A stretch of DNA of 46,267 bases. Origin: Patescibacteria group bacterium (GTDB taxonomy: Bacteria; Patescibacteriota; Minisyncoccia; CAIUEV01; JAHKAQ01). The position numbers were made by a program, and so were the translations under genes. Location: contig JAYEHH010000013.1 in the NCBI GenBank assembly GCA_034716235.1, positions 1 to 46,267 on the forward strand. Reading direction: 5' to 3'. Shown here piece after piece: positions 1,985-37,940 of the stretch (the first letter of the stretch is position 1; each line of letters begins with the position of its first letter). Below the pieces are notes generated by a model that saw only the letters and a list, made by a program, of their open reading frames with translations, was not told the origin of the DNA and made no database searches.

Positions 1985-4612
1985 TTAACTCCACATTATT
2001 ACCTCCTCCAAGACCTTCATCAGGTCTTTTATTTTGTAAGGTTTGGAGAGAACTCCCGCAAACCCATTTGGTACTTGTTCCGAATAGCCAGAAGAAATAA
2101 TGGCTTTAACATTCGGATCTAGCTTTTTAAGCTCTTCCAAAGTTTCCACTCCACCCATTCCTCCGGGGATGGTGAGGTCCAAAATGACCATATCAAACGG
2201 TGTTTCAGAGCCGAAAGCTTCTTGATATTTCTCAACTGCTTCAGCTCCATGCTCGGATAAAATAAATTGATGTCCGAGATTTCCAAGGATATCTTTCATC
2301 AAATCCAAAACCATTTGGTTATCATCCATTACCAAAATCTTTAGACTCTTAGTGGTCTTGGACGATTCTTCAACAGACTCCTTTTTCAGGACAGCATTCC
2401 TATCAGCTGAAAGGTAAATATGGAAAGTTGTTCCTTTACCTTGTTTTGAATTGGCATAAATACACCCTCCGTGCTTTTGAATCACGGAATGGGATACGGC
2501 TAATCCGAGTCCAGACCCACCTTGTTCCTTCTTACTATCTTTTGTAGAAAAGTATGGGTCAAAAATCTTCTGCAGGTATTTTTTTGGGATTCCAATTCCA
2601 CTATCCTTAAAAATGATATGGACAAAATTGCCTGGTACAAAATGGTAAGAATTGCTAGATGTCATTTCAACATTTTCTGCCCGAATTTGTATAACCCCAC
2701 CTTCAGGCATTGCCTGCTTCGCATTAATGATCAGATTCTGAAATACCTGGTCAATCTGGTCAACATCTATTTCCATCATCCAAAGATCTTCTGGCAAAGT
2801 TAATTCGCACTTAACCGAAGAACTTTGACCTAAGGCAAGGTTGACTGATTCCTCAACAACTTCTGCAATAGAAGCTATTTTCTTTGAAGGAATTCCGCCT
2901 TTTGCAAAAGTTAACAGTTGTTGCGTCAGACTTGTTGCTTTTTCTGATGCTGTTATTACTTTTTGCAATAACTCATCTTGTTTCTTTGGGTTATTCTTGT
3001 TTAACAAGGCAATGGAAGTATTCCCCATAATTCCAACCAATAAATTGTTAAAATCATGTGCAATTCCGCCAGCGAGAACTCCTAAGGATTCCAGCTTTTG
3101 TAATCGCAAAAGACTTTCCTCCGCCTGCTTGCGCTCGGTGATGTCCAGATGAACGCCTACAGCTCTTAAGGGCTTGCCTTTTCCATTAATCTCAAAACTC
3201 TTACCTTTCCCCGAAATCCATTTCCAGGTCCCATTTTTGCATTTGAGACGAAATTCTGCTTCGTAAGGCTCGGCATTTTCCACATGTTTTGTAATCTTGG
3301 GGACAATTGTTCTCCGATCTTCAGGATGCATTAAACCTGTCCATGTCTCTTTTCGCATGGGCAGTTCTTTGTCCTCATATCCAAGCATTGTATAGTAGCG
3401 TGGACTGAAATAAATATCATCAGTTTTCAGATTCCAATCCCAGAAGCCATGTTCCCCGGCGTCCATTGCCAGTTCTAAGCGGTTTTTATGTTCTTTTATC
3501 TGCTTGTTTGCCGCCCTCAATTGCCGTTCTGTTCCCCGGAGTTGTCGATTATTTGCATCAAGTTGCCGGTTTGTTGCTTTTAGTGCCTCCTCTGCTTGCT
3601 TGCGCTTGGTGATATTACGAGTAATGCCGAGAATCCCGGTTAGTGCTCTGTCTTTATTTCGTAGAAAAGATGTTGTCACTTCAGTCCAAACAGTGCTTCC
3701 GTCTTTGCGAATTTGCTCAAGTTCCAATGTTTTTGAACGATCATAGGTAATACCCAATTTACCATCTCTTGCTATTTCGTCCATAATGACCGTAATAGCT
3801 TTCTTATATGATTTGGGCGTACAGATGTTTTCCAAAGGAATCTGTATAGCCTCGTCGGGATTATATCCACGCAACTTCATAATAGATGGGCTGAAATATG
3901 TAAATTCCCAATTCATATTCATTGTCCAGATAACATCCGCGGAATTTTCAGCAAGAAGTCGATATTTTTTCTCGTTTTCCAGAAGCTTTTCTTCTGCCTG
4001 CTTGCGTTCAATGACTCCGGTAATGATTCGCCCCACGGCTTGGAGAAGTTCAATATTCATGTCTGACCACTTCCGATGACTAACACAGTCATCAAAACCC
4101 AGAAATCCGTAATACTGTCCAGCCACGAAGAGTGGGACATCAAGAATGGAAAGAATCTGCTGAGAGCGCAACATCGTTTTAACATTTTCATCTGGGATAA
4201 CTTCAATATCCGCGAAGCTGATGACCTGATTACTCTTTAACATTTCCACCCACCACGGAATATCTGCGGTGTTCACACCTTGTAGTTCATCTTTCTGCCG
4301 TGATACCCCTTCGGCAACCCATTCAAAAACGTTGTCAAAGGTGTCTGTTCCATGATGGTGCTTGAAGATATAGATCCGGCTCACATCCAGTGTTTTCCCC
4401 ATCGCCGTCAGGCAATTGTTCTGGAAGACAGACAGATCATCGGCCTCTATTGCGAGTACTGAGATGCGGGAAAGCAACTGTTCATAAGATAGCCTTTCCT
4501 GTAGAGCCTCCTCCGTCTGCTCGCACTTTAAAAGAAAAACTGACCATAACATCTTCCAAACTACTTTGATTTTACCTAAGCATTCCTTGCATTTCTTAAT
4601 TATTTCTCTCAT
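1985..4612 (-). CDS. Cytoplasmic hybrid sensor histidine kinase (GAF, three PAS, HisKA, HATPase_c, receiver)
   Basis: H-box GGIAHDFNNLL, N/G boxes (NLIINAKQAM, DSGIGI, GGSGLGLAVS), C-terminal receiver (ILVMDDN...DMVILDLTIPGG...SKPY), and repeated PAS modules joined by ITxRKQAEE linkers. The start is moved to ATG 4612, which follows GAGGAG. No TM segment. Confidence 0.9.
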   Translation of the reverse strand: MREIIKKCKECLGKIKVVWKMLWSVFLLKCEQTEEALQERLSYEQLLSRISVLAIEADDLSVFQNNCLTAMGKTLDVSRIYIFKHHHGTDTFDNVFEWVAEGVSRQKDELQGVNTADIPWWVEMLKSNQVISFADIEVIPDENVKTMLRSQQILSILDVPLFVAGQYYGFLGFDDCVSHRKWSDMNIELLQAVGRIITGVIERKQAEEKLLENEKKYRLLAENSADVIWTMNMNWEFTYFSPSIMKLRGYNPDEAIQIPLENICTPKSYKKAITVIMDEIARDGKLGITYDRSKTLELEQIRKDGSTVWTEVTTSFLRNKDRALTGILGITRNITKRKQAEEALKATNRQLDANNRQLRGTERQLRAANKQIKEHKNRLELAMDAGEHGFWDWNLKTDDIYFSPRYYTMLGYEDKELPMRKETWTGLMHPEDRRTIVPKITKHVENAEPYEAEFRLKCKNGTWKWISGKGKSFEINGKGKPLRAVGVHLDITERKQAEESLLRLQKLESLGVLAGGIAHDFNNLLVGIMGNTSIALLNKNNPKKQDELLQKVITASEKATSLTQQLLTFAKGGIPSKKIASIAEVVEESVNLALGQSSSVKCELTLPEDLWMMEIDVDQIDQVFQNLIINAKQAMPEGGVIQIRAENVEMTSSNSYHFVPGNFVHIIFKDSGIGIPKKYLQKIFDPYFSTKDSKKEQGGSGLGLAVSHSVIQKHGGCIYANSKQGKGTTFHIYLSADRNAVLKKESVEESSKTTKSLKILVMDDNQMVLDLMKDILGNLGHQFILSEHGAEAVEKYQEAFGSETPFDMVILDLTIPGGMGGVETLEELKKLDPNVKAIISSGYSEQVPNGFAGVLSKPYKIKDLMKVLEEVIMWS

Positions 4613-4626
4613 TTTTTTCTCCTCTT

Positions 4627-4902
4627 CTAAAACAATTTCAAAACTAATTTCGCCTTCCATCCGGAAAACGCACGATAACCAAAGAAGACAACCATGTCTC
4701 CCCCTTTAATTTCTTTTGAGATTGGCCGTTTAGGCTCCCAAAGAAAATCAGTACCAATTATCCATCGACTGGCTGGCCGAGGGAAAACCACATCAATAAA
4801 TCCTCGTTGACGCTTATTTTTTGATTCTCTCTTTTTGAACCTGCCCAAGATAAAACCTAGGCAACATAACCTCAAAAACAATCTAATCAGATTAATCCTC
4901 AA
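4627..4902 (-). CDS. Hypothetical small protein
   Basis: Strong SD AGGAGGTGA lies 5 nt before an in-frame TTG at 4902. The ORF ends 15 nt upstream of the kinase start. No recognisable domain. Confidence 0.4.
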   Translation of the reverse strand: MRINLIRLFLRLCCLGFILGRFKKRESKNKRQRGFIDVVFPRPASRWIIGTDFLWEPKRPISKEIKGGDMVVFFGYRAFSGWKAKLVLKLF

Positions 4903-18568: not shown

Positions 18569-19201
18569 TCAGTTTGTGTGGCAACCTTTACAGGTTACCG
18601 GTGCCACTTTCCCCTCCTTTCTAACTTTTCTATGGCACCCCTTACAACTTTTGTGTAACGCCTCCTTATGATAACTGAGGCGATCTTTCTTGGATAATCC
18701 TGCGGGTCTTTTACCCACCTTGTTATGACACTTGGAACATTTATCTATTCCTTGTGTCTGAATCATCTCTTGAGTGAGGGGGGCACCTTTTGTATCGTGG
18801 TGGCACTCTCCACACGCATAATCAGCATGCTTTAGGTGATTAAATACCACAATTCTCTTGCGATGTTTTTTGTAAATTTCACTTTCCATGTGAATTATGG
18901 TAGGAGAAATAGTCTCAATATTTTTGTCTGCCTTTTCCTTCACTTCATCCCTTGCCACCTCTGTTCTTTCTATTGTTTCTTTCTTCCCTTCTTTCTCTTC
19001 TCTCACCTTTACCTTTTCCGTTTTTATAGCGTCCATGGCTGTTTCGGTTGTCTTATTCTCTACAACCGGGAACACCATCTTTGTTTCCGATGGTGATTCA
19101 ATAGTTACTTGTTGGCTCTGGCAACTTCCGCCGTGAGAGCCATAAAATAACGAAAAAATAGCCCCAGCGATTAATACTAAAACAAACAATATTTTTTTCA
19201 T
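18569..19201 (-). CDS. Exported tetrahaem class III (c3/c7-type) cytochrome c
   Basis: Signal peptide, K/E-rich linker, then VVFNHLKHADYACGECHH, CSKCHN, CKGCHR and CKGCHTN, which gives four CxxCH motifs. Confidence 0.8.
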   Translation of the reverse strand: MKKILFVLVLIAGAIFSLFYGSHGGSCQSQQVTIESPSETKMVFPVVENKTTETAMDAIKTEKVKVREEKEGKKETIERTEVARDEVKEKADKNIETISPTIIHMESEIYKKHRKRIVVFNHLKHADYACGECHHDTKGAPLTQEMIQTQGIDKCSKCHNKVGKRPAGLSKKDRLSYHKEALHKSCKGCHRKVRKEGKVAPVTCKGCHTN

Positions 19202-27862: not shown

Positions 27863-27890
27863 TTGACAAAACCCCTAGGGGGTATATGCT
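27863..27890 (+). promoter_or_regulatory. Promoter with embedded CsoR-family-type operator
   Basis: TTGACA (27863-68), 16-nt spacer, TATGCT (27885-90). The spacer is occupied by the G/C-tract inverted repeat ACCCC-TA-GGGGGT (27871-83). Confidence 0.55.
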
Positions 27891-27934
27891 TTAATTTCAA
27901 ATTCAGTAGTTCATTTCTAAATTATTTTAGTCCC

Positions 27935-28183
27935 ATGAGAAAAAATACAGTCAGTCAGCGACTGAATATTGTCAAAGGGCAAGTCAACGGACTGATAGAT
28001 CTCATAGAAGCTGAAAAAGATTGTCGTAAGATAACTGAACAATTTTATGCAACCAACACTGCTCTAAAAAAAGCGATGGAGCTTTATTTCAATGAAAATA
28101 TGACAACTTGCTTAGAATCTATCAATCCTAAAAAGAAAACTACTATTGAGTTTTTATTACAAGAGATAATTAAAAATAAGTAA
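27935..28183 (+). CDS. CsoR/RcnR/FrmR/CstR-family (DUF156) transcriptional repressor
   Basis: RLNIVKGQVNGLIDLIEAEKDCRKITEQFYATNTALKKAMELYFNENMTTC. The start is moved to ATG 27935. It has two Cys, and Asn occupies the position of the CsoR copper-ligand His. Confidence 0.85.
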   Translation: MRKNTVSQRLNIVKGQVNGLIDLIEAEKDCRKITEQFYATNTALKKAMELYFNENMTTCLESINPKKKTTIEFLLQEIIKNK

Positions 28184-28189
28184 AAAAAC

Positions 28190-28519
28190 ATGGCGAAAAC
28201 AATCGAACTAACAGACAAAAACTTTGAGGAGGAAGTGCTCAAATCTGACACTCCTATCTTAGTTGATTTCTGGGCTCCTTGGTGTCAGCCTTGCATAATG
28301 ATGGCTCCTGCTCTAGAAGCTTTAGCAGAGGAAATGGAAGGTAAACTCAAAATAGGGAAAATTGATACGGAAGTACCAGGGCATCAAGAACTGGCCGCTC
28401 AATATCAAATTCAAAGCATCCCTAATATGAAATTATTCAAGGATGGCGAAATGGTTAAGGAATTTATTGGTCTGCGTGATAAAGATACTTTTAAAGCTGA
28501 GCTAGAAGAGGAACTTTAA
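28190..28519 (+). CDS. trxA: Thioredoxin (active site WCQPC)
   Basis: ILVDFWAPWCQPCIMMAP...IQSIPNMKLFKDGE. Confidence 0.9.
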   Translation: MAKTIELTDKNFEEEVLKSDTPILVDFWAPWCQPCIMMAPALEALAEEMEGKLKIGKIDTEVPGHQELAAQYQIQSIPNMKLFKDGEMVKEFIGLRDKDTFKAELEEEL

Positions 28520-28647
28520 GATTTTCTAAAATTACGGTGGATTAGATGTTTCAATGAATGAGCGCTAAAGGAAAATTTTGTTTCTACTATCAATTGTTAT
28601 TGAAAAGATGTTGGTAATAGAAAAATTAAGAGGTAATTTGTAAAATT

Positions 28648-29586
28648 ATGACGGAGCAGAAAAACAATCATTCTTTAATCATTATTGGAGCTGGGGCGGC
28701 GGCTCTGACTGCTTCAATTTATGCTTCACGCTACAAGATGGAGCATATCATTATTGGTAGTGCGCCAGGTGGTCAGGTCTTTGAGGCTCATAGAGTATGT
28801 AATTTTCCAACAGAACAAGATATTAGCGGCGCAAAATTAGTGGCTAAAATGCAAAAGCATACTGAATCTTTGGGAAATAGAATTTTAGTTGACGAGATAA
28901 TTGATATTAAAAAGGAGAATAATGAATTTAAAATTACCACTCAAGCTAAAAAGATTTATTTTGCTAAAGCTGTTTTACTGGCCACTGGTACGGAGCATCG
29001 TCAGTTAAATTTACCCGATGAGGACAAATTTATTGGTAGAGGAGTCTCATATTGTGCTACTTGCGATGCTTTATTTTATAAAGATAAGGTAGTAGCCGTA
29101 GTTGGCGGTAGCGATAGTGCTAATACGGCTTCTCTTTATTTAGCAGAAATAGCCAAGAAAGTTTATCAAATTTATCGTAAGGATAAATTGCGTGGCGAAA
29201 CTACTTGGATTAATCAAATAGAAAAAAATGAAAAAATCGAAGTTATTTATGAAACAGAAGTTGTGGGCTTAATGGGTGAAAATCAATTAGAAAAGATTAA
29301 ACTTAGTAAAAGCTATAAAGATCAATCCGAGATTGAAACCGACGGTTTATTCGTTGAGATTGGGGCTGTCCCTCAAACAGCGTTAATAAAACAATTAACT
29401 TTAGGGACTGATGAAGCAGGATATGTAAAAGTGAACGCTGATCAAACAACCAGTCAAGAAGGGGTTTGGGCTGCTGGTGACATTACGAATGGCTCTAATA
29501 ATTTCCGTCAGATTATTACCGCTTGTAGTGAAGGAGCAATCGCAACGGAGAATATCTTTCAATTTCTACAAAAAGATAAAATATAA
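28648..29586 (+). CDS. trxB: Low-molecular-weight thioredoxin reductase family flavoprotein
   Basis: IIIGAGAAALTASIYA, redox CATC, VAVVGGSDSANTA, AAGDIT. Confidence 0.85.
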   Translation: MTEQKNNHSLIIIGAGAAALTASIYASRYKMEHIIIGSAPGGQVFEAHRVCNFPTEQDISGAKLVAKMQKHTESLGNRILVDEIIDIKKENNEFKITTQAKKIYFAKAVLLATGTEHRQLNLPDEDKFIGRGVSYCATCDALFYKDKVVAVVGGSDSANTASLYLAEIAKKVYQIYRKDKLRGETTWINQIEKNEKIEVIYETEVVGLMGENQLEKIKLSKSYKDQSEIETDGLFVEIGAVPQTALIKQLTLGTDEAGYVKVNADQTTSQEGVWAAGDITNGSNNFRQIITACSEGAIATENIFQFLQKDKI

Positions 29587-29630
29587 ACTACATTTTGGCT
29601 ATTTGATTTAAATAGTTTATAGTTAGAGTT

Positions 29631-29858
29631 ATGAAAAAAGTTATAAAGAAAACAATAACAGGTTTTCTATTCAATAGAATAGAAAAAATGGGAGACGAAG
29701 ATTATAACCATGTTGGCTTTGAAGATAAAAATAAATCTTTTGGTGATTTATTATTAGCTTCGGTGCCAAAGATCGGTACTCAAAGAAAGGCTAGGATCAC
29801 TATAGAAATTCTAGAAGATGCTAAAGATATCCCTAATCAAAATAATGAAAACAACTAA
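29631..29858 (+). CDS. Hypothetical small protein
   Basis: ORF only. Overlaps the next gene by 14 nt. Confidence 0.35.
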   Translation: MKKVIKKTITGFLFNRIEKMGDEDYNHVGFEDKNKSFGDLLLASVPKIGTQRKARITIEILEDAKDIPNQNNENN

Positions 29859-30150
29859 CAAGCCTGATTTAGCCATTGTTGAAAAATTATTAAAAAAGGT
29901 GAAGCATCCGGCTATCGATAGCACTTTATTTGAGTTAGGCATTCTGAAAGAAGTAACTGTTGAAGAGGATAAAATAAAGATTGAATTAGCTTTCCCCGCC
30001 GCCAACATACCCATTAAGGATGTTTTGATTCAGCAAGTTAAGGAATCTTTGGTGAATTTAAAGGCAGAAGTTGAAGTGAAAACGACGGTAATGGACAAAG
30101 AAACTTTACAGAAATTTTTTAGCTTGGAACAACAAAACTGGAAAAATTAA
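29845..30150 (+). CDS. DUF59 (MIP18/SufT-like) family protein lacking the usual Cys
   Basis: VKHPAIDSTLFELGILKEVTVEEDKIKIELAFPAANIP. The start is moved to ATG 29845. Confidence 0.7.
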   Translation: MKTTNKPDLAIVEKLLKKVKHPAIDSTLFELGILKEVTVEEDKIKIELAFPAANIPIKDVLIQQVKESLVNLKAEVEVKTTVMDKETLQKFFSLEQQNWKN

Positions 30151-30177
30151 AATATTATTTTTTTAAATTATAAATTT

Positions 30178-30366
30178 ATGGATAAATATAAAATTAATAA
30201 GGAGAAATGTATTGGTTGTGGAGCCTGTGTAGCAGCTTGTCCTTTTGGAGCTATTGAGATGGAAAATGATGGTAAGGCAATTGTAGATCTAGATAAATGT
30301 CAAGGTTGTGGTAAGTGCCAAAAAGTCTGTCCAGCTGATGCAATAGATAAAATATCAGCTGAATAA
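30178..30366 (+). CDS. 2x[4Fe-4S] ferredoxin
   Basis: CIGCGACVAACP and CQGCGKCQKVCP. Confidence 0.9.
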   Translation: MDKYKINKEKCIGCGACVAACPFGAIEMENDGKAIVDLDKCQGCGKCQKVCPADAIDKISAE

Positions 30367-30498: not shown

Positions 30499-30762
30499 CT
30501 AAGAAATATTCTCGGCTTGTTTTTTCTCCTCTTTTACAACAGTATCCATGGCTTTCTTGTCTTTTGCTTGCATTGCTTGGAATTTATTTTTCAGATTTTT
30601 AGTTGCAAAATTAAGCATCTCAGGACTTTCTTTTACTAAATCTAGCACCAATTTAATTTCTTTTTCGCCAACAGCTTCAGCAAATAGAGCCCACATTTGC
30701 TTGTCCGTTTTTTCCAGAGAAGAACTTTCAATTATTTGTTTTAATTCTTTTTTAGATTCCAT
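30499..30762 (-). CDS. Hypothetical helical protein
   Basis: ORF only, 87 aa, 19 nt downstream of the preceding gene. Confidence 0.5.
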   Translation of the reverse strand: MESKKELKQIIESSSLEKTDKQMWALFAEAVGEKEIKLVLDLVKESPEMLNFATKNLKNKFQAMQAKDKKAMDTVVKEEKKQAENIS

Positions 30763-30781
30763 TGTTATTTATTTATTTATT

Positions 30782-31627
30782 TTACCAAGCGACTCTATCG
30801 GCTATTGCTCTTGCTTGTTGGGCTGCCATAGCTGCCCGATTAGCAGCGATATTCCCTCCTTGTGAATTAGCTTTTCTGGCAGAATCCATTGCTCTATCTG
30901 CTGATTTTTCTGCTCTATCTGCCATTCTTTCTACATTTCTAACGGCTCTCCTTTTATTGTTTTCAAATCTTCTAACATTTTGTTCTGAACCCGCACTTTC
31001 TATTTTTTGAGTTTCATTGTTTACTTTCCGAGCTTCTCTTCCTGCATCTCGAGCGTATCGTTCTGCATCTCGAGCGTATCGTTCTGCTCGCTCTCGGTAT
31101 CTTTGTTGACGGTCAGTCTCTTTTAATCCAAACAATTCTTGAAGTTTTCCAAATTCATCAATGCCTCCTTCTGTTGCTCGACGATATTTTCTAAGGTTTC
31201 TAGTGGCGTCATTCATTGTTTGAGCCACTTTTCCTAATTCCTCAAAGAAATTACCCGCTTTTGCCTCACCGGGGGTAGTAAGTGAACCAGCCATTATGGC
31301 TGCTCCTACTGAAATAGCTAACATAGCTTTTTTAAATCTTTTCTTTTTAGCTTCTTTCTCCAAAGATTCTTTTGGTTGTTCTACGGTTGCTTCTTCTTCT
31401 GCTTCTTTATTGTCTAGTGTTGCCAATTGTTCAACTTCATTTTCTACTAACGGTTCTAAATCCTCTAGGTTTTCTTTAAATCTATTTAGTTCTTCATTTG
31501 TCAGTTCTTTTGGTTGTTCTTCGGGCTGATTTTCTTGCTGATTGTTTGATTGAGATTCTGTTTTCTCCTCATTTTTAATTTTAGCCTCTACGCCTTCTTT
31601 TTTAATTTGCTCAAATGGATTACTCAT
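30782..31627 (-). CDS. Hypothetical membrane-anchored coiled-coil protein with ERYARDA repeats
   Basis: Acidic N-terminus, one TM helix (AMLAISVGAAIMAGSL), and a basic R/A/E-rich C-terminus. A perfect 21-bp tandem duplication at 31043-31084 encodes the ERYARDA repeat. Confidence 0.6.
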   Translation of the reverse strand: MSNPFEQIKKEGVEAKIKNEEKTESQSNNQQENQPEEQPKELTNEELNRFKENLEDLEPLVENEVEQLATLDNKEAEEEATVEQPKESLEKEAKKKRFKKAMLAISVGAAIMAGSLTTPGEAKAGNFFEELGKVAQTMNDATRNLRKYRRATEGGIDEFGKLQELFGLKETDRQQRYRERAERYARDAERYARDAGREARKVNNETQKIESAGSEQNVRRFENNKRRAVRNVERMADRAEKSADRAMDSARKANSQGGNIAANRAAMAAQQARAIADRVAW

Positions 31628-31876
31628 AATTTTTTATTTAACTTTTCTATATTCAGTCGAAACTTTATTAGATAGATATGCTTATTTTTATTATACTTTA
31701 ATTTAATTATTTTGTCACTTGAAAATGTTTCTGGGATATGTTTAATTTTTCATCTAAATGGTGACTCATTCTTAATTTCATAGTCATTCCTGCCTGTCTA
31801 AACTCATTAGCCAATGTACCCATTACAATTTTGTAACACGGCGAGGTAAATAGGAATCTCGCTTGAAGAGCGATCC

Positions 31877-31901
31877 GCCAGCCTCGCCGAGTCTAGGCGG
31901 G
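31877..31901 (+). repeat. GC-rich dispersed element, partial copy
   Basis: CCAGCCTCGCCGAGTCTAGGCGGGC is identical to 46045-46069 and to the reverse complement of part of 43277-43315. Confidence 0.9.
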
Positions 31902-31934
31902 CGGGCAAATTACTAACTTAAAATATATTTTAAG

Positions 31935-32813
31935 TTAGCTTTCAAAAATATTCATTTCCAACACCGCTTTTAACTTTTCAAAAATATTTTTAATTTCTTC
32001 TTTAGCCTTAAGGTCGGTTTCTAAAAGGGGAGTGAGGTTGCTGATAGTTTTAAAGATTCGTTTATCGTAAGTTATTTTCCCTAAAAATTTATTACCAGCC
32101 CACTTTTTAAGTTCATCACTTAATTTGGTATTTATATCCCATTTATTGATTACCACCCCATAAGGTATTTTAAAATGATCAACCACTTCTAGAACTCTTT
32201 TTAAATCGGTAAATCCAGAAGGGGTTGGTTCCGAGATTAAAACGGTAAAATTAGCATCTTTTAAGGCCGCGGTTACCGGGCAACCAGTTCCTGGAGCAGA
32301 ATCAATAATCATCATTGCTGGATTAAATTTTTCAGCTTCTGCCTTTATTTCATCCACGATTTTTCCTGAGCCTGTTTCTCCGGGAGAAAGTTGGCCAGAG
32401 ACTAGAGGAAATCCTGCTAAATCTTTTTTAATTTTAATTTCTCCATTCTGAATAGGCTTTAATTTGATTGCACCTTGGGGGCAAATAGCCTCACAAGCTC
32501 CGCAACCCTCACATAAAAATTTATTAAGAATAGGCTTTGTCTGTTTCATTTTGATGGCTTCAAAGCGACAATTTTTGGCACACAAACCACAACCATCGCA
32601 TTTAGCTAAGTCAAATTCAGGTCTTTCTGCTGTTACAACCGGTAAAACCTCATCCCACTTCTTTATTCCTCCTAACCAAATGGCTAAATTGGGTGTGTCC
32701 GCATCACAATCTGTGGCTACAATTTTATATTCTTTCGCAAAAAGTGTTGCTAATGTTGAAGTCAACATTGATTTTCCTACACCGCCCTTACCTGATGCAA
32801 TTACTAAATTCAT
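31935..32813 (-). CDS. MinD/ParA-family P-loop ATPase with two inserted 4Fe-4S ferredoxin motifs
   Basis: Deviant Walker A SGKGGVGKS, plus CDGCGLCAKNCRFEAI and CEGCGACEAICPQGAI. Confidence 0.85.
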   Translation of the reverse strand: MNLVIASGKGGVGKSMLTSTLATLFAKEYKIVATDCDADTPNLAIWLGGIKKWDEVLPVVTAERPEFDLAKCDGCGLCAKNCRFEAIKMKQTKPILNKFLCEGCGACEAICPQGAIKLKPIQNGEIKIKKDLAGFPLVSGQLSPGETGSGKIVDEIKAEAEKFNPAMMIIDSAPGTGCPVTAALKDANFTVLISEPTPSGFTDLKRVLEVVDHFKIPYGVVINKWDINTKLSDELKKWAGNKFLGKITYDKRIFKTISNLTPLLETDLKAKEEIKNIFEKLKAVLEMNIFES

Positions 32814-32920
32814 ATTATAACTGATTTAATTAAAACTCTTGCTTGTTAATTATTTGAATTATTTTTAAGTTTATTAAATTATCAAGCCACTAAACAATTT
32901 CATTATGTTTCTAAATAGGA

Positions 32921-33823
32921 TTATAATTTTAATTCGGGATCTTTGACATTTAATAATTTCCCTTTTGAATAGGCTGTCACCAATTTTTTAGAATAGGGGA
33001 TTTCTTTTTCAATTTTTACCTTAAATTTATGGGCTGTTTTTTGGATTCCCTTTTTATCTCCTAAATTTGCTTGATTTAAAATTATTTTAACCGGCAATTT
33101 TATTTTTTGGCAGAGGTCTAAAATTAAATTCAGGTCGTAGTTACCCATGGGAGTCGGTTCGGTTACCGCATAAGCGGTTCTGCATCCCAATAGAGCGGAG
33201 ATTACTGAACAATGTGTTCCGGCGGCTGTGTCAAAAAGAATCAAATCGGCTCCCACTTTCTTGGCTAATTTTAGGGCTATTCTTTTTGTTTGTTTTACAA
33301 TGGGGCTGGTTTCTTCCAGTCTTGGTTTTGCTTCGCCCGTAACCAGCCATAATTGAGAATTTATTTTATTAGAAAAAATTTTGCCGGTTGTTTCTTTTTG
33401 AGTAAGGATTGCTTTTTGGGGACAAACAATTTGGCAAGCTCCGCAAGCTGAACATAAATCTTTAATAAAAACGGGATATTCTCCGGGAGCTTGAAAGATA
33501 GCATTATTCCTGCAGGTTCTGACACAAAGGCCACTGCGGACGAGCGGTGTTTTTTTAGAAATATGTTCTTCTTTATTTAAGGAAACGCACTTGTCGCATT
33601 TCTTTTTATCTAATTTTGGAAATTCGGCAAAAGTTTTTTCCAGCGGTTTAGTTAATTTTTCCCCTAATAATAAATAATCATTGGGACATTCCACGTCACA
33701 GTCGCAAAGAATTACCTTCTTGCCTTGCCTAACAAGAGAATTGGCCAAAAGAATACTGATTGTTGATTTTCCCGTTCCTCCTTTACCTCCTGTAATGGCT
33801 ATTTTATCTATTTTTTTAATCAT
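32921..33823 (-). CDS. MinD/ParA-family P-loop ATPase with one canonical and one expanded Cys-cluster insert
   Basis: GGKGGTGKST, C-x2-C-x19-C-x3-C (CDKCVSLNKEEHISKKTPLVRSGLCVRTC), and CSACGACQIVCP. Confidence 0.85.
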   Translation of the reverse strand: MIKKIDKIAITGGKGGTGKSTISILLANSLVRQGKKVILCDCDVECPNDYLLLGEKLTKPLEKTFAEFPKLDKKKCDKCVSLNKEEHISKKTPLVRSGLCVRTCRNNAIFQAPGEYPVFIKDLCSACGACQIVCPQKAILTQKETTGKIFSNKINSQLWLVTGEAKPRLEETSPIVKQTKRIALKLAKKVGADLILFDTAAGTHCSVISALLGCRTAYAVTEPTPMGNYDLNLILDLCQKIKLPVKIILNQANLGDKKGIQKTAHKFKVKIEKEIPYSKKLVTAYSKGKLLNVKDPELKL

Positions 33824-35057
33824 TTTTCTTTAAACTTTGAATTAATTCCGCTAGTGTTTTTTCAGGGTTGATGATTGTTACTTCAATGCCGAAATTTTCC
33901 AATCCTTGCCGAGCATTTTCTCCTATTTGGCGGGTTATTATTTTATTGGCTCTCACAGCTTTGGCAAATCTGATCCCATGCGGAGCTCCATTTTTGGAAC
34001 CGTCTTCAAAATACGGATTCTGAAGGTATTTCTTGGTTAAAATTTTACCGTCTTTGATATCTATTAGAAGATAGCGATCTTCTCCCATTTGTTTTCCAAT
34101 TTCATTACCTGTTAGGGGGACAATAATCCGTTTTCCTTTTTTGGGAGGTCCTATTTTCTCAAAACCATCAAGAGTCCCTATTTTATCTCCAAATTTAGTT
34201 AGAATAACGCTTCTGGCCATTTTGTAAGATTCAATTGAAATGACTATATTCTTTAACTCAGGAATATTTTTTAGTAGCCTTTCTTCTAATGTTTGGGTTA
34301 CTTCTTGAACAGCCTCTACTTTTAATTTCGGAGGAAGTTTGATTTTAATTTCGGCAAAATTCAAAGAGCCAACCTGCCTACTTTTTATATCGGCGATTTC
34401 TATTTTATGAGAGAGGCAAATTTTTCTAATTTTTTCTTCCAGATCTTTATTGGATACATCAAGCAGGGATTCTGTTATTTCTTTGCCTACTTTAAAAGCC
34501 TCAAAGAGGATGTAAATTCCTACCAGTAAAGCTATGATGGCATCAGCTAAAGTAAAGAATCTTATGAGACTAATTCCAATCAATACTCCGACTGAAGAAA
34601 GGGCGTCGGCCCTTGAATGCTCGGCGTCGGCAATCAAAGCCAAACTTTTTTCTTTGGCTCCATATTTGAATTTAAGTCTGGCTAAAAACTCGGCGATTAT
34701 AATGGAAGCGATAACTACTCCGATTGCTCCTGCATTTAATTCTACCGCTTCTTCTTTAAAGAACCGCATAATCGCTTCGTAAAGAATCCAAAGGCCGGAA
34801 ATTGCCAACAGTACGGCTACAAAAAGGCCCGCTAAACTTTCCGCTTTCCAATGGCCATAAGGATGTTTAGTGTCTTTTGGCTTTTTAGCTGTTTTTATAC
34901 CTAAAAAGGTAATAAAAGACGAAATGACATCCAGACTGGAATGAATTCCGTCAGCTACCAAAGCCATACTGCCAGTAGAGAATCCAAAAAGTAATTTGGC
35001 GAGTCCTAATCCAAAATTTCCCAAAACACTAATTGTGGAAACAATTTGGGCGTTCAT
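33816..35057 (-). CDS. Cation diffusion facilitator transporter fused to a C-terminal NifX/NifB-like (FeMo-cofactor-biosynthesis-fold) domain
   Basis: TM2 ADGIHSSLD and TM5 ADAEHSRAD (HxxxD/HxxxD), HPYGH loop and cytoplasmic CTD. About 120 further residues (RYLLIDIKDGKI...GAPHGIRFAKAVRANKIITRQIGENARQGLENFGIEV) resemble the neighbouring NifX-like protein. Confidence 0.85.
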   Translation of the reverse strand: MNAQIVSTISVLGNFGLGLAKLLFGFSTGSMALVADGIHSSLDVISSFITFLGIKTAKKPKDTKHPYGHWKAESLAGLFVAVLLAISGLWILYEAIMRFFKEEAVELNAGAIGVVIASIIIAEFLARLKFKYGAKEKSLALIADAEHSRADALSSVGVLIGISLIRFFTLADAIIALLVGIYILFEAFKVGKEITESLLDVSNKDLEEKIRKICLSHKIEIADIKSRQVGSLNFAEIKIKLPPKLKVEAVQEVTQTLEERLLKNIPELKNIVISIESYKMARSVILTKFGDKIGTLDGFEKIGPPKKGKRIIVPLTGNEIGKQMGEDRYLLIDIKDGKILTKKYLQNPYFEDGSKNGAPHGIRFAKAVRANKIITRQIGENARQGLENFGIEVTIINPEKTLAELIQSLKKND

Positions 35058-35097
35058 TCTAATAATTTATTAATAATTTGTAAAAACTATTTTTTCT

Positions 35098-35532
35098 TTA
35101 TTCTTCCACTGCTGGATTATGTGGTTCGTGATGTGGTCCATGAGAACCATGCTGGTGCCGTGGAGGTAATTTTGGATTATCTTCCGATGATTGAGGCGAT
35201 TTAGACTCTTCTAGTTCATTATTTTTGTAACTGGTGTAAGCTTCTTTAACTGAAATATCAGCTACTCCAGCAAAAATTTTAACTTTGGTAGGGTTGAGAA
35301 CTCTGTAAGCGTTGGGCCCCATATTGCCAGTAATAATAACTCGGACCTTTTCATCTGCTACCATTTGAGCAGCAGAAATTCCAGCGCCTCGAGCAGCTTC
35401 TCCAGCTTCATTGGGGATGGATTTTGTTAATTCTCCTTTTTCATCAACAATTAAAAAATATTGGCATCTCCCAAAGCGAGGATCAACCGGCGAATCCATA
35501 GTAAGACCAGTAGATGTAATACAAATTTTCAT
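35098..35532 (-). CDS. NifX/NifB-family (dinitrogenase FeMo-cofactor biosynthesis fold) protein with His-rich tail
   Basis: MKICITSTG...VDPRFGRCQYFLIVD...GAGISAAQMVADEKVRVIITGNMGPNAYRVL. Tail PPRHQHGSHGPHHEPHN. Confidence 0.85.
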   Translation of the reverse strand: MKICITSTGLTMDSPVDPRFGRCQYFLIVDEKGELTKSIPNEAGEAARGAGISAAQMVADEKVRVIITGNMGPNAYRVLNPTKVKIFAGVADISVKEAYTSYKNNELEESKSPQSSEDNPKLPPRHQHGSHGPHHEPHNPAVEE

Positions 35533-35538
35533 AAATAT

Positions 35539-35748
35539 TTAATTATTTCTAGACATTTTTGCTCCGCACTTAGGACAAGTTTGCTCGTAGCAAGGAACTG
35601 CTCTTTGATGAGGCACTTCTGCTCCACATTTAGGGCAAACACAATTGCCTTCTGGACCTAATCCAGAACCACCAGGTTGACGTCCACGTCCTCCTTCATT
35701 AGAAGGCTCGGGGTTGTTGTTCGGGGTTGTTGAATTTGCTTCTTCCAT
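35539..35748 (-). CDS. Small Gly/Arg-rich zinc-ribbon protein
   Basis: GGRGRQPGGSGLGPEGNCVCPKCGAEVPHQRAVPCYEQTCPKCGAKM, with two CPxCG knuckles. Confidence 0.6.
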   Translation of the reverse strand: MEEANSTTPNNNPEPSNEGGRGRQPGGSGLGPEGNCVCPKCGAEVPHQRAVPCYEQTCPKCGAKMSRNN

Positions 35749-35780
35749 TTTTATTACTTAAGAATTAATATTGAAAATCT

Positions 35781-36059
35781 TTAATTTCTAATAATTTTTA
35801 TGGCCTTGCCTGTTGTCAAAGCTTCGGCGATTTTTTGATTAGCAGACACTAAAATGCGTTGGAAAGTACTTTGAGAAACTCTCATTTTTTTGGCACATTG
35901 AACCTGATCTAATCTTGCTACATATTTTAACCGAATAGCTTCTAGCTTATCAGAACCCAACTCAATTTCTTGTAATGCCCTCAATGGTATCCCTTGAGGC
36001 TTAAAATAGGTTGCCGTGGGGTTGAAATTTATTCTTCTGAATTTATGTGGTCTTCCCAT
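35781..36059 (-). CDS. DUF134 (UPF0251) predicted DNA-binding protein
   Basis: MGRPHKFRRINFNPTATYFKPQGIPL...LEAIRL...QVQCAKKMRVSQSTFQRIL...GKAIKI matches the family pattern along its whole length. Confidence 0.85.
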   Translation of the reverse strand: MGRPHKFRRINFNPTATYFKPQGIPLRALQEIELGSDKLEAIRLKYVARLDQVQCAKKMRVSQSTFQRILVSANQKIAEALTTGKAIKIIRN

Positions 36060-36076
36060 AATTTAGATTAGTTGAT

Positions 36077-37435
36077 TTAGCCAAACATTAAAAGGCTTGG
36101 TTTGAAAATTAATAAAATTCCGATAATTATCATGAGTAATCCGCCGATAAGGCGAGATGCCCGAGTGTATTTTGTGGCTATGCCTGTCATTTGCAAAGTT
36201 ATCATTGCAGTGAAAAAGATAAATAAATCATCCAAGATAAAGATGAAGGTATAAAGACAAAGATAAAGGCAATATTGCCATCTTGCTAGATGACTTAAAG
36301 CTAATGTTTGAGTATAGATTACTGGTAAACCTGCTGAGCAAACCATTTCTACTAGATTAACTGTGACCGCTAAAATTATGATACCTCCTAAGGCTAGCCA
36401 AAATTGTTTTTTCTGAGTAACTTTTTTTAATTTACTAAAAAATTGTTGCTTCTTTTCACTACCAGTTACCTTACATTGGCCTTCCTTGTTGTAAAAAAAT
36501 TCTTTAAGATTATAAGCTCCGCCACCTAAAGCTATCAAGCCAATAATAATTCTAGCCCATAAAATCAAGCCAATAAATAGAATAAGATTTAACCAGGCTG
36601 TCATAAATAGAAAATAGACTATTCCAGAAATAGCGATAAAGGTACTACCAAAAATCCACATTCTTTTTTTATCTTTCATACCTAGAAGCAAGCTAATCAG
36701 AAATAAAAGAGCCCACATAGCACAAGGGTTAAAACCATCCAAGGCTCCAAAAATAATGGTAATGGTTAATAAGGAAAAATTTTTAATTTCTATTTCTCCC
36801 AATAAAGGTAAGTTTACTGTTTTGGGGATTTCTTCTAAATTAAGATTTTCTTTTTGAGGCTTTTGCTCCGTAGCTACTGATTCGGTAGGGGTCGGTTTAA
36901 CTGAAGCTGATTCAGATTTAGAGTCTATTGCCAAATTTTCCTTGACGGCATTTTCTATTACTACCCCAGTAGTTTCTTCGCTTCTCCAACCGATAAAATA
37001 TTGATCTCCGACTACTGTGAAGGGGATACCGTCAATATCAGCTTCAAGTGCTTGACCGACTTCTCTAAATAATTGAGCATTTTCCTTTTTAGATATTTCG
37101 AAATGACGGATAGTCAAACTAGGATATTTTTTAGCTAACTTTTCCAGAAAAGGTTTCTCTTCCGCACAATGATGACAACCATTAGACCAAAAAAACAAAA
37201 GAACCGTTTCCGATTTAGTTTCATTGGTGGTAACCCCACTAGCGGTTTCTTTTTCTGCTGAAACTGGTGCTACGTTTATTAAAAATAGCATTAAAAATAT
37301 CGGTAAGAATACCGGCATTAATCTGGATATTGTTTGCTTAAGTATATTTAGAAAAGACTTGCAATTGTTTGTTTTTATCTCCATAAACATCTTTGAAAAT
37401 AAATTGGCATTAGAATTACAACACCTCTCCTTCAA
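36077..37435 (-). CDS. Exported thioredoxin-fold domain (CHHC) fused to a DsbD/CcdA-like polytopic membrane domain
   Basis: Signal sequence ...FLMLFLINVAPVSA, LLFFWSNGCHHCAEEKPFLEKL, a linker, then six or more TM helices with Cys in GALDGFNPCAMW and LVEMVCSAGLPV. The start is uncertain: TTG 37435, ATG 37390/37384 or ATG 37318. Confidence 0.7.
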   Translation of the reverse strand: MKERCCNSNANLFSKMFMEIKTNNCKSFLNILKQTISRLMPVFLPIFLMLFLINVAPVSAEKETASGVTTNETKSETVLLFFWSNGCHHCAEEKPFLEKLAKKYPSLTIRHFEISKKENAQLFREVGQALEADIDGIPFTVVGDQYFIGWRSEETTGVVIENAVKENLAIDSKSESASVKPTPTESVATEQKPQKENLNLEEIPKTVNLPLLGEIEIKNFSLLTITIIFGALDGFNPCAMWALLFLISLLLGMKDKKRMWIFGSTFIAISGIVYFLFMTAWLNLILFIGLILWARIIIGLIALGGGAYNLKEFFYNKEGQCKVTGSEKKQQFFSKLKKVTQKKQFWLALGGIIILAVTVNLVEMVCSAGLPVIYTQTLALSHLARWQYCLYLCLYTFIFILDDLFIFFTAMITLQMTGIATKYTRASRLIGGLLMIIIGILLIFKPSLLMFG

Positions 37436-37452
37436 AAAGTAAAGGAGAGGTG
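37421..37452 (-). promoter_or_regulatory. Perfect 12-bp hairpin between the DUF5320 gene and the downstream gene (candidate attenuator or processing site)
   Basis: ACACCTCTCCTT-caaaaagt-AAGGAGAGGTGT, starting 9 nt after the DUF5320 stop. No clear U-tract follows. Confidence 0.5.
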
Positions 37453-37460
37453 TGCTGACC

Positions 37461-37724
37461 TTAATTTTTCCGAGACTGTAATTCTTTAATCCTTTCTTCC
37501 ATAGCTGATAATTCCGATCTTAACTGATTTGTTTCTTCTCTGAGAGTGCCTTGGTTTGGTTGTCCTGCAAAATTCTGATTTCTAAAATTTCTTCCCATTC
37601 TTCTAGATCCTCTTCCCATTCCAAATCCAGATTGAGAATTACCAGTAGTATTTCCACTGCAAGGTCCTAGTCTGCGTCCTACGGGTCCGGTGCCGTAGGG
37701 TCCTGTTCCGTTCATGTTAGGCAT
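37461..37724 (-). CDS. DUF5320-family small protein
   Basis: MPNMNGTGPYGTGPVGRRLGPCSGN...GFGMGRGSRR, then a C-terminal coiled coil LRSELSAMEERIKELQSRK. SD AAGGGGG present. Confidence 0.75.
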   Translation of the reverse strand: MPNMNGTGPYGTGPVGRRLGPCSGNTTGNSQSGFGMGRGSRRMGRNFRNQNFAGQPNQGTLREETNQLRSELSAMEERIKELQSRKN

Positions 37725-37864
37725 TTTAATCGCCCCCTTTCTTTAGTCTCGCCACAATGGCTCATCTTCGTTTCGCAGAGCGAAACTATGGTAGAGCAAT
37801 GGCAGACTTATGTTAAATATCTAATTTAATAGGTAAATTTGTGTAATTCGACCTTTATGTTATG

Positions 37865-37893
37865 AGTATATACCCATAAAGAATTATTGTCAA
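37865..37893 (-). promoter_or_regulatory. Sigma70-like promoter of the 37724-31935 operon
   Basis: Minus strand TTGACA (37893-37888), 17-nt spacer, TATACT (37870-37865). This leaves a leader of about 135 nt. Confidence 0.55.
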
Positions 37894-37900
37894 GAGGGAG

Positions 37901-37940
37901 ACAAACAAAGAAAACGCTTTTTAGCGTTTTCTTTGTTTGT
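37901..37940. terminator. Perfect 18-bp hairpin terminator after hup
   Basis: ACAAACAAAGAAAACGCT-tttt-AGCGTTTTCTTTGTTTGT. Confidence 0.7.

Follow-up and report, generated by a model that had tools for sequence, protein, structure and literature searches.

A conserved Patescibacteria operon that combines an ORP-like core, a CDF::NifX-fold fusion, and a recurrent palindromic operator

Introduction

The orange protein (ORP) complex of Desulfovibrio includes a NifX-fold protein. In Desulfovibrio vulgaris, two of its members, Orp3 and Orp4, resemble MinD/ParA, carry a pair of [4Fe-4S] motifs apiece, and co-purify with Orp8 (PMC6345978), the orange protein itself, which consists of a single NifX-fold domain (PMC6345978, PMC8359166). 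Orp9, also called MrpORP, joins an Mrp/NBP35 ATPase to a second NifX-fold domain and transfers iron-sulfur (Fe-S) clusters to the complex, and the orp genes are switched on under anaerobic, reducing conditions (PMC6345978, PMC8359166, PMC4672049). Another NifX-fold protein, IssA, serves as a store of iron and sulfur in the form of anionic thioferrate, held by a disordered cationic tail rich in Gly, Arg, and aromatic residues; MTH1175 has been called an IssA-type protein and was used to model the IssA domain (PMC5524996). Since 2011 the ORP complex has had no settled function, and storage of the IssA type is known from one archaeon. Here we analyse an operon in a 46,267-nucleotide stretch of DNA from a Patescibacteria group bacterium (GenBank assembly GCA_034716235.1, contig JAYEHH010000013.1), which we refer to as the window. 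Eight minus-strand genes (31935-37893) combine proteins of both kinds with a metal transporter from the CDF (cation diffusion facilitator) family, and a palindromic putative operator overlaps their promoter.

A preliminary description of this operon, made from the letters and a list of open reading frames (ORFs), had treated its core as functionally unassigned. That statement no longer holds, as the core, a NifX-fold protein with two MinD-ferredoxin ATPases, corresponds by sequence and architecture to the published ORP complex (PMC6345978, PMC8359166), and the free NifX-fold protein appears to lie near the IssA clade (PMC5524996). The preliminary description had missed the literature on ORP and IssA. 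New are the fusion of a CDF transporter to a NifX-fold domain in 58 species-level Patescibacteria loci, almost always in the neighbourhood of the same cluster, a 20-bp operator, fusions of DUF134 to a cysteine-rich ribbon, and IssA-like cationic segments in three of the proteins. Neither a fusion of a CDF to a NifX-fold domain nor a Patescibacteria cluster resembling ORP or IssA turned up in a literature search, and no published function covers the whole set of genes.

Results

The eight ORFs, which we call g1 to g8 in the order of transcription, encode a DUF5320 protein (g1), an exported thioredoxin-fold membrane protein (g2), a DUF134 protein (g3), a six-cysteine ribbon protein (g4), a free NifX-fold protein (g5), the CDF::NifX-fold fusion (g6), and two MinD-type ATPases (g7 and g8). 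Their coordinates and common strand were borne out by an ORF check in the 46-kb window. When the proposed domain labels were put to profile hidden Markov model (HMM) or profile-profile tests, seven of the eight passed; the DsbD-like label of g2 did not.

The fusion protein g6 (33816..35057, minus strand) comprises a CDF transporter (residues 1-~282) and a cytoplasmic NifX-fold domain (residues ~283-413; 33819-34211). Membership of the transporter part is clear from TIGR01297 (2.6e-69), PF01545 (Cation_efflux, 1.6e-50), and PF16916 (ZT_dimer, 6e-8). Taken alone, the C-terminal domain falls below the Pfam threshold (22.3 versus 26.3 bits), and the proposed fusion was confirmed by comparing a profile of this region from 11 family members with that of the free NifX-fold protein (95.2 % probability, E 2.5e-8). 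An invariant linker of about 35 residues (residues ~283-320) with the motif G..G.L.GFE.IGP.K..R joins the two parts and has no counterpart in the free protein. The transport-site residues H39/D43/H147/D151 align to site A of YiiP (D45/D49/H153/D157); D43, H147, and D151 are invariant in the family, and position 39 is a His in 31 of 35 sequences. Because these residues are conserved, we argue that g6 is a working transporter. Its best scores among named CDF models are to MamB, MntE, MamM, and FieF, all of them below the cut-offs of these models, and g6 stays under every NCBIfam equivalog cut-off.

The ATPases g7 (32921..33823, minus strand) and g8 (31935..32813, minus strand) belong to two paralogue groups, A and B, that are about 33 % identical and each conserved across relatives. 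The start of g7 overlaps the stop of g6 by 8 nt. The expected P-loop ATPases with inserted 4Fe-4S motifs were recovered (CbiA/ParA Pfam families plus Fer4), with the amendment that only g8 has two complete CxxCxxCxxxC motifs; in g7, an insert of 20 residues breaks up the first ferredoxin motif. Both proteins have a deviant Walker A, eight ferredoxin cysteines, and two further invariant cysteines. The nearest solved structures to the P-loop part are MinD and FleN, and no member of the family itself has been solved. A NifH-like bridging cluster held by the invariant cysteine after Walker B was considered and dropped, as it rested on spacing only and PDB profiles put MinD/FleN nearest.

The free NifX-fold protein g5 (35098..35532, minus strand; Di-Nase, IPR003731) matches Pfam Nitro_FeMo-Co at 8.5e-20. 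Its best PDB match is MTH1175 (1eo1, 1.7e-18); it also matches the ORP of D. gigas (2wfb, 7.6e-15), and the match to MTH1175 would place it next to the IssA iron-sulfur storage clade. The single-domain protein required for an ORP-like set is thus present, as are two paralogous ATPases with two [4Fe-4S] motifs, whose likeness to Orp3/Orp4 (DVU2103/DVU2104) is one of architecture. No Mrp/NBP35 fusion was found in the operon, where the second NifX domain sits on the CDF transporter instead, and the MrpORP model (NF041136) aligns only piecemeal, to g5, the C-terminal end of g6, and the N-terminal end of g7, far below its cut-off. The promoter is of the sigma-70 type with a palindrome, not sigma-54, and no gene for an enhancer-binding protein occurs in the cluster. 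The His-rich tail ascribed to g5 is real, yet unconserved and specific to its lineage. It is rich in Pro and His (pI, isoelectric point, 6.0; 2 Gly and 6 His in 37 residues as first delimited) and so differs from the high-pI, Gly-rich tails of the IssA type. Among long-tailed NifX relatives encoded beside the CDF fusion, 38 of 44 have tails with a pI >9.5 and >=15 % Gly, often with a single Cys. Cationic, Gly-rich, IssA-like segments occur in three proteins of the cluster: the NifX tails, DUF5320, and the N-terminal regions of the ribbon proteins.

Homologues of the CDF fusion and of g2 are found in Parcubacteria, Nealsonbacteria, and other Patescibacteria. When each species was represented by one genome, a scan yielded 67 loci, 58 of which have a full-length CDF::NifX fusion (L numbers below denote loci compared with the window). 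HMMs made from the window and four relatives were run against ORFs called in these 67 loci; neighbours were counted on the strand of the fusion and only in loci with enough flanking sequence. The NifX-fold protein accompanies the fusion in 48 of 57 loci, where it lies upstream, and ATPase A, directly downstream of the fusion gene, in 41/50. Next come DUF134 (25/33), DUF5320 (36/51), ATPase B (24/37), and the zinc-ribbon protein (32/54), and the thioredoxin-membrane protein is found in half of the loci (14/28). An arrangement that recurs in dozens of species-level loci is far beyond chance, which agrees with the co-localisation that had been proposed.

The usual gene order is DUF5320, ribbon, NifX, CDF::NifX, ATPase A, variable inserts, ATPase B, and DUF134. 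Within it, the succession of NifX, CDF::NifX, and ATPase A hardly varies, and a stop-start overlap joins fusion and ATPase A. The order in the window, with the thioredoxin-membrane protein and DUF134 moved forward, is common only to the closest relatives (L007, L011, and L012). Inserts in relatives encode an AhpD-like CMD protein, ABC_tran with ABC-3 (ABC-3/ZnuA-type), ZIP, a CobW/HypB/UreG-type GTPase with an Fe-S domain, a Trx::ferredoxin-thioredoxin-reductase, a ferredoxin, a metallo-beta-lactamase fold protein, GDH, LigD_N, and HD proteins. The proposed link to metal is strengthened by the fused CDF together with the ABC-3/ZnuA-type, ZIP, and CobW/HypB/UreG-type inserts. A gene of the uracil-DNA glycosylase (UDG) superfamily lies inside the cluster in 14 genome loci (e.g., L031, 8980-9573), and its N-terminal CxxC suggests an Fe-S-containing family 4 enzyme.

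The operon is preceded by a sigma-70-type promoter, TTGACA-N17-TATACT (37865..37893, minus strand), that matches 11 of 12 consensus positions, as well as by a leader of about 135 nt, both as first described. Over its -10 box lies a 20-bp palindrome, TTATGGGTATATACTCATAA (37860..37879, minus strand), with the half-site TTATGrGTATA, a putative operator without a second copy in the 46-kb window, where chance would give 0.01 matches. From 42 core-motif matches in genome loci and the window (41 different loci), we derived the consensus TTGACA-N8-10-TTATGGGTATATACTCATAA. This composite promoter-operator occurs 38 times in 916 kb with both strands counted, once per locus, always on the strand of the cluster, and 16-333 nt (mostly 49-216) upstream of the first recognised cluster gene. 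Its conservation in this position bears out the claim of a single operon behind one promoter. We consider the recurrent operator in front of a Patescibacteria operon to be newly recognised; a literature search found no report of a DNA target for DUF134 or DUF5320.

Metagenome contigs were scanned for the exact operator, which gave at least 120 stretches, and 80 of the matches listed were taken as loci. Among the matches listed, a cluster-family gene follows within 450 nt in 68 of the 80 loci; DUF5320 comes first in 65 of these 68 and DUF134 in the other 3. The usual order in these loci is operator, DUF5320, DUF134, and then cargo. Cargo was counted only from the first genes after the cassette, as longer chains reach housekeeping genes such as FtsZ. 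Direct cargo, again among the matches listed, comprises the thioredoxin-membrane protein (at least 11 loci), CDF (6-7 loci), ABC-type transporter genes, YibE/F, ZIP, small thioredoxins, and CMD. From this gene order we conclude that the operator, DUF5320, and DUF134 form a portable regulatory cassette ahead of genes for metal transport and thiol redox chemistry. The window operon is this cassette combined with an ORP-like/CDF module. Outside the fusion clade, DUF5320, DUF134, and an unfused CDF occur together in L070, an archaeal metagenome-assembled genome, and in L076; a different perfect palindrome, TTGAATATATATTCAA, precedes DUF5320 upstream of 7244 in L070.

A conserved box, AAAGGTCGA (37848..37856, minus strand), follows the operator in the leader and matches A[AG]AGG[TC][CT][GA]. 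Of the 42 motif matches, 31 have such a box after the operator, 29 of these at 0-66 nt. The distance of the box from the promoter is variable, and in several of the loci L011-L077 a hairpin lies between operator and box. The promoter itself starts directly 3' of the terminator hairpin of the upstream hup (HU) gene (37901-37940; perfect 18 bp). An alignment of upstream regions showed that it is kept almost base for base in L007/L008 despite different upstream genes, and that the leader sequence beyond it is not conserved there. A riboswitch or other known RNA in the leader was rejected on this ground and because Rfam gave no match.

Three small proteins of the operon are candidates for its regulation. 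The DUF5320 protein g1 (37461..37724, minus strand; Pfam 2.8e-12) begins with a Gly/Arg-rich region and ends in a coiled coil; the mean composition of the N-terminal region in 44 family members is 25 % Gly, 11 % Arg, and 18 % aromatic residues. The helix-turn-helix protein g3 (35781..36059, minus strand) is a member of DUF134 (UPF0251), with a Pfam E-value of 4.3e-17 (PF02001, 62.9 bits versus a cut-off of 27) and a match of 4e-6 to a sigma-70 region-4-like domain, and it is the candidate operator-binding protein. That the operator travels with DUF5320 and DUF134 supports the dedicated regulator that had been postulated. The Gly/Arg-rich ribbon protein g4 (35539..35748, minus strand) carries CxCPxC...PHQRGxPCY..CPxCG, the consensus of 40 sequences in which six Cys and one His are conserved, more cysteines than a plain zinc ribbon needs. 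The N-terminal regions of such proteins (35 % Gly, 12 % Arg) resemble that of DUF5320 in chemical character. In L058 (2177-2677) and L072 (7165-7644), DUF134 and the ribbon form a single polypeptide of 159-166 aa, which argues that g3 and g4 are functionally linked.

The remaining protein, g2 (36077..37384, minus strand), has an exported thioredoxin-fold domain and a membrane domain with about six predicted transmembrane helices that belongs to an undescribed family. Pfam matches of the first domain are sub-threshold; its AlphaFold2 model (pLDDT ~90) gives Foldseek matches to thioredoxins, so the exported thioredoxin of the preliminary description stands. The CHHC motif reported with it is a single-residue peculiarity of the window, and that of the family is CPHC. 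The DsbD-like character given to the membrane domain was rejected by Pfam, by a profile comparison with E. coli DsbD, and by Foldseek on two models. Pfam gave no match to this domain at E up to 10, nor to any of 40 diverse members of its family; the probability from hhalign with the E. coli DsbD membrane domain was 0.2-0.3 %, and a model of the domain alone (pLDDT 85, pTM 0.78) reached a best PDB Foldseek E of 1.0. Cysteines of the family lie in the invariant helix motifs NPC and CSAGLP and in GCKVTG of a basic loop, which is kept in at least 90 %. The membrane-domain family comprises at least 2046 representative clusters.

The tie to the thioredoxin-membrane protein that had been described for the window recurs in relatives, where this protein is a non-obligatory partner. 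In two other sampled genomes, g2-type genes stand beside a cytoplasmic thioredoxin, an ArsR-type regulator, and an ArsP permease, and in L005 and L006 the cytoplasmic thioredoxin gene is directly upstream. Electron flow through g2 could run either way, because CPHC is the motif of DsbA, yet elsewhere the neighbour is a cytoplasmic thioredoxin. A 279-aa membrane protein of CcdA-like appearance in L055, which has no Pfam match, proved to be a thioredoxin-less member of the g2 family (97.4 %). A 423-aa protein in L003 was rejected as a g2 homologue, having no similarity to it.

ORF coordinates confirmed the overlap of 8 nt as well as intergenic distances of 17, 32, 6, 40, and 107 nt; the 25-nt gap once given after DUF5320 was an artefact. 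A stable stem-loop (37421..37454, minus strand) directly follows the DUF5320 gene, within a 61-nt segment that folds at about -24 kcal/mol (z -4.8). The TTG at 37435 that had been taken as the start of g2 lies inside its loop, and the database gene call starts 17 codons later at M18 (P0121, 435 aa); the gap therefore measures at least 76 nt and contains the stem-loop. At the same position, the closest relatives L007 (~4595-4630) and L012 have a hairpin of unrelated sequence (z ~-6). The hairpin may be an attenuator or an RNA-stability element.

After the stop of g8, a GC-rich structured region of 110 nt (31835..31945, minus strand; -39 kcal/mol, z -4.0, without a T-run) in a genome of about 35 % GC is likely the end of the operon. 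A separate promoter-like site for the following gene lies at 31718..31690. Two genes beyond it (30499-31627, minus strand) encode a charged protein of 281 aa and a protein of 87 aa without Pfam families; only L007, L011, and L012, the closest relatives, have them after the operon, and they are not counted as parts of it. Just downstream, a convergent block (27863-30366, plus strand) encodes a CsoR/RcnR-type metal-sensitive repressor, a thioredoxin, a thioredoxin-reductase-like Pyr_redox_2 protein, DUF59/FeS_assembly_P, and a 62-aa ferredoxin. The last three of these genes as listed, with Pyr_redox_2, are syntenic in L007, whose locus ends before the rest.

Elsewhere in the window, an ORF at 18569-19201 (minus strand) matches class III multihaem cytochrome c (PF02085, 1.7e-13), which to our knowledge is unusual for Patescibacteria. 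Further ORFs encode a SocA/Panacea antitoxin-like helix-turn-helix protein (686-1459) and a large hybrid histidine kinase of the GAF/PAS type that includes a receiver domain (1985-4660).

Discussion

We propose that the operon is the Patescibacteria version of an anaerobe system for handling Fe-S species and metals, in which storage is combined with efflux of iron or Fe-S, possibly zinc, under its own repressor cassette; we regard this proposal as evenly poised between right and wrong. A DUF134 dimer would bind the palindrome and repress transcription, with the six-cysteine ribbon g4 as its putative partner in sensing metal or an Fe-S cluster. The free NifX-fold protein, being of the ORP/IssA kind, may hold metal-sulfur species non-covalently, and the two MinD-type ATPases could act on these species as an ATP-driven heterodimer, comparable to Orp3/Orp4 with Orp8. 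The NifX domain of g6 might dock the complex of ATPases and NifX protein at the membrane, or sense its load. Storage or assembly of Fe-S species would in this way be coupled to efflux of surplus Fe2+ or Zn2+ by the CDF transporter. The cationic Gly-rich segments are candidates for binding an anionic iron-sulfide polymer of the IssA kind. At the outer face of the membrane, the exported thioredoxin-membrane protein probably adds thiol-disulfide chemistry.

Several points weigh against this proposal. The site A pattern H-D-H-D is that of zinc-carrying CDFs, so iron is not established as the substrate of g6. Its fused NifX domain has no invariant Cys and one mostly conserved His, and the g5 of the window is itself without a cationic tail. 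The putative counterparts of Orp3/Orp4, Orp7, and Orp5 (g7/g8, g3, and g4) are set beside them by description, and the functions proposed for the Patescibacteria cluster draw on sequences and predicted models. The literature describes the function of the ORP complex as unclear, possibly in cell division (PMC6345978, PMC8359166, PMC4672049). Finally, co-regulation is no proof of physical cooperation, because the cassette also precedes importers (ZIP and ABC-3) and unrelated cargo.

The last point leads to the possibility that the operon is a mosaic, in which a streamlined genome has put unrelated housekeeping functions under a single promoter that responds to metal or redox state. An ordinary zinc/iron efflux pump, a thiol oxidoreductase of general use in the envelope, and general factors for Fe-S maturation would then stand side by side, with neither physical nor mechanistic cooperation between them. 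The varied cargo behind the cassette (thioredoxin-membrane protein, CDF, ABC, ZIP, YibE/F, and small thioredoxins), the unrelated UDG, GDH, LigD_N, and HD genes inside the cluster in relatives, and the quite different neighbourhoods in which the thioredoxin-membrane protein also occurs all speak for such a mosaic. A mosaic does not readily account for a NifX domain covalently joined to a CDF by an invariant linker in 58 species-level loci, or for the nearly fixed and translationally overlapping order of NifX, CDF::NifX, and ATPase A, and we consider it unlikely, if a serious contender. Somewhat less probable still is a regulon for oxidative or thiol stress, in which an Fe-S cluster in the ribbon would sense redox state and induce export of thiol reductant, Fe-S repair, and efflux of iron from damaged clusters. 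The orp operons of Desulfovibrio are indeed switched by redox potential through the Fe-S sensor OrpR (PMC8359166), cargo and inserts include the thioredoxin-membrane protein, thioredoxins, AhpD-like CMD, and Trx::ferredoxin-thioredoxin-reductase, and genes for a thioredoxin, a thioredoxin-reductase-like protein, and DUF59 adjoin the operon. DUF134 differs as a family from OrpR, however, the promoter is of the sigma-70 type, and the ligand of the ribbon could be zinc as well as an Fe-S cluster. This explanation overlaps with metal-sulfur storage and efflux and does not exclude it.

A positioning device of the ORP type, whose MinD-like ATPases would place the septum or another structure in a redox-dependent manner with the CDF as a mere membrane anchor, is quite improbable. 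It would fit the closeness of the P-loop part to MinD/FleN among solved structures and the morphological defects and polar localisation reported for ORP (PMC8359166, PMC4672049, PMC6345978). The recurrent neighbours, however, are metal transporters, thiol-redox proteins, and Fe-S proteins rather than division genes, and the transport-site residues of the CDF are conserved. We favour the handling of metal and Fe-S species over cell division because the NifX domain is tied to a transporter and the cluster is kept in minimal genomes.

Storage and efflux can be extended to a more specific picture, an undescribed Patescibacteria regulon in which the operator, DUF5320/DUF134, and a ribbon sensor for Fe-S or metal would switch on an ORP-ATPase/CDF machine. 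The paired ATPases would dock on the NifX domain of the CDF, and iron would pass between the cell's exterior and an IssA-like store of thioferrate that is held by the cationic Gly-rich segments of three proteins of the cluster. This extension is doubtful, ranking a shade below the mosaic and above the stress regulon in our estimation. If true, including its reading as thioferrate efflux, it would give first functions to DUF134, DUF5320, and the MinD-ferredoxin ATPases and, by extension, to the ORP complex.

The operon ties proteins of the ORP and IssA kinds covalently to a metal transporter and has been kept across many species-level lineages with minimal genomes. Its soluble domains make the question of ORP and IssA function testable. 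The operator is a first concrete, testable target for the widespread families DUF134 and DUF5320, and is an entry point to gene regulation in bacteria that are not yet cultivable on their own. The membrane domain of g2 represents a large family without described relatives.

Comparison with known systems

Like DsbD/CcdA with ResA/TlpA, or DsbA with DsbB/VKOR, g2 combines an exported thioredoxin-fold CxxC domain with a polytopic membrane domain and intrahelical cysteines. The cytoplasmic thioredoxin genes directly upstream of g2-type genes elsewhere are a context shared with DsbD/CcdA pathways, and the family motif CPHC is shared with DsbA. In contrast, g2 has no sequence or fold similarity to DsbD, and DsbD, CcdA, DsbB, and VKOR are absent from its fold-search matches.

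The ORP complex of Desulfovibrio has a single NifX protein, two Fe-S ATPases, a second, fused NifX domain, and a small Cys-rich protein, all of which are matched here, and an anaerobic lifestyle is common to its host and that of the window operon. The second NifX domain is carried by an Mrp/NBP35 ATPase in the ORP system, whereas here it is carried by a CDF transporter. The orp genes form two divergent sigma-54 operons under OrpR and IHF; here a single operon has a sigma-70 promoter, a palindromic operator, and DUF134. DUF5320 and the thioredoxin-membrane protein are additional to the ORP cluster.

IssA of Pyrococcus furiosus (formerly SipA, PF2025) and the uncharacterised "IssX" clade share the IPR003731 globular domain with g5, and a cationic Gly-rich tail, often with a single Cys, is a feature of IssA as well as of most g5 relatives (PMC5524996). 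The tail of g5 in the window is Pro/His-rich with a pI of about 6 instead. IssA has been described without ATPases, a CDF transporter, or a DUF134-type regulator, whereas the cluster of g5 has these.

Known CDFs (YiiP/FieF, MamB/MamM, and ZnT8) have a six-helix transmembrane domain and a ZT_dimer domain, with sites A and B conserved, as does g6. Site A is D-D-H-D in YiiP and H-D-H-D in g6, as in ZnT-type zinc carriers, and K238 and Q251 of g6 stand where YiiP has its cytoplasmic site-C histidines. What sets g6 apart from these CDFs is its extra NifX-fold domain on an invariant linker.

In regulatory layout, the operon can be compared with that of CzrA, an ArsR/SmtB-type repressor, and the CDF CzrB, a metal-responsive pair of repressor and efflux protein. 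As in the window operon, a small DNA-binding protein is encoded with a CDF, and a palindromic operator lies over the promoter. The protein family differs: CzrA is of the ArsR/SmtB type, whereas the candidate regulator here is DUF134, accompanied by DUF5320 and, in some genomes, by a fused six-cysteine ribbon.

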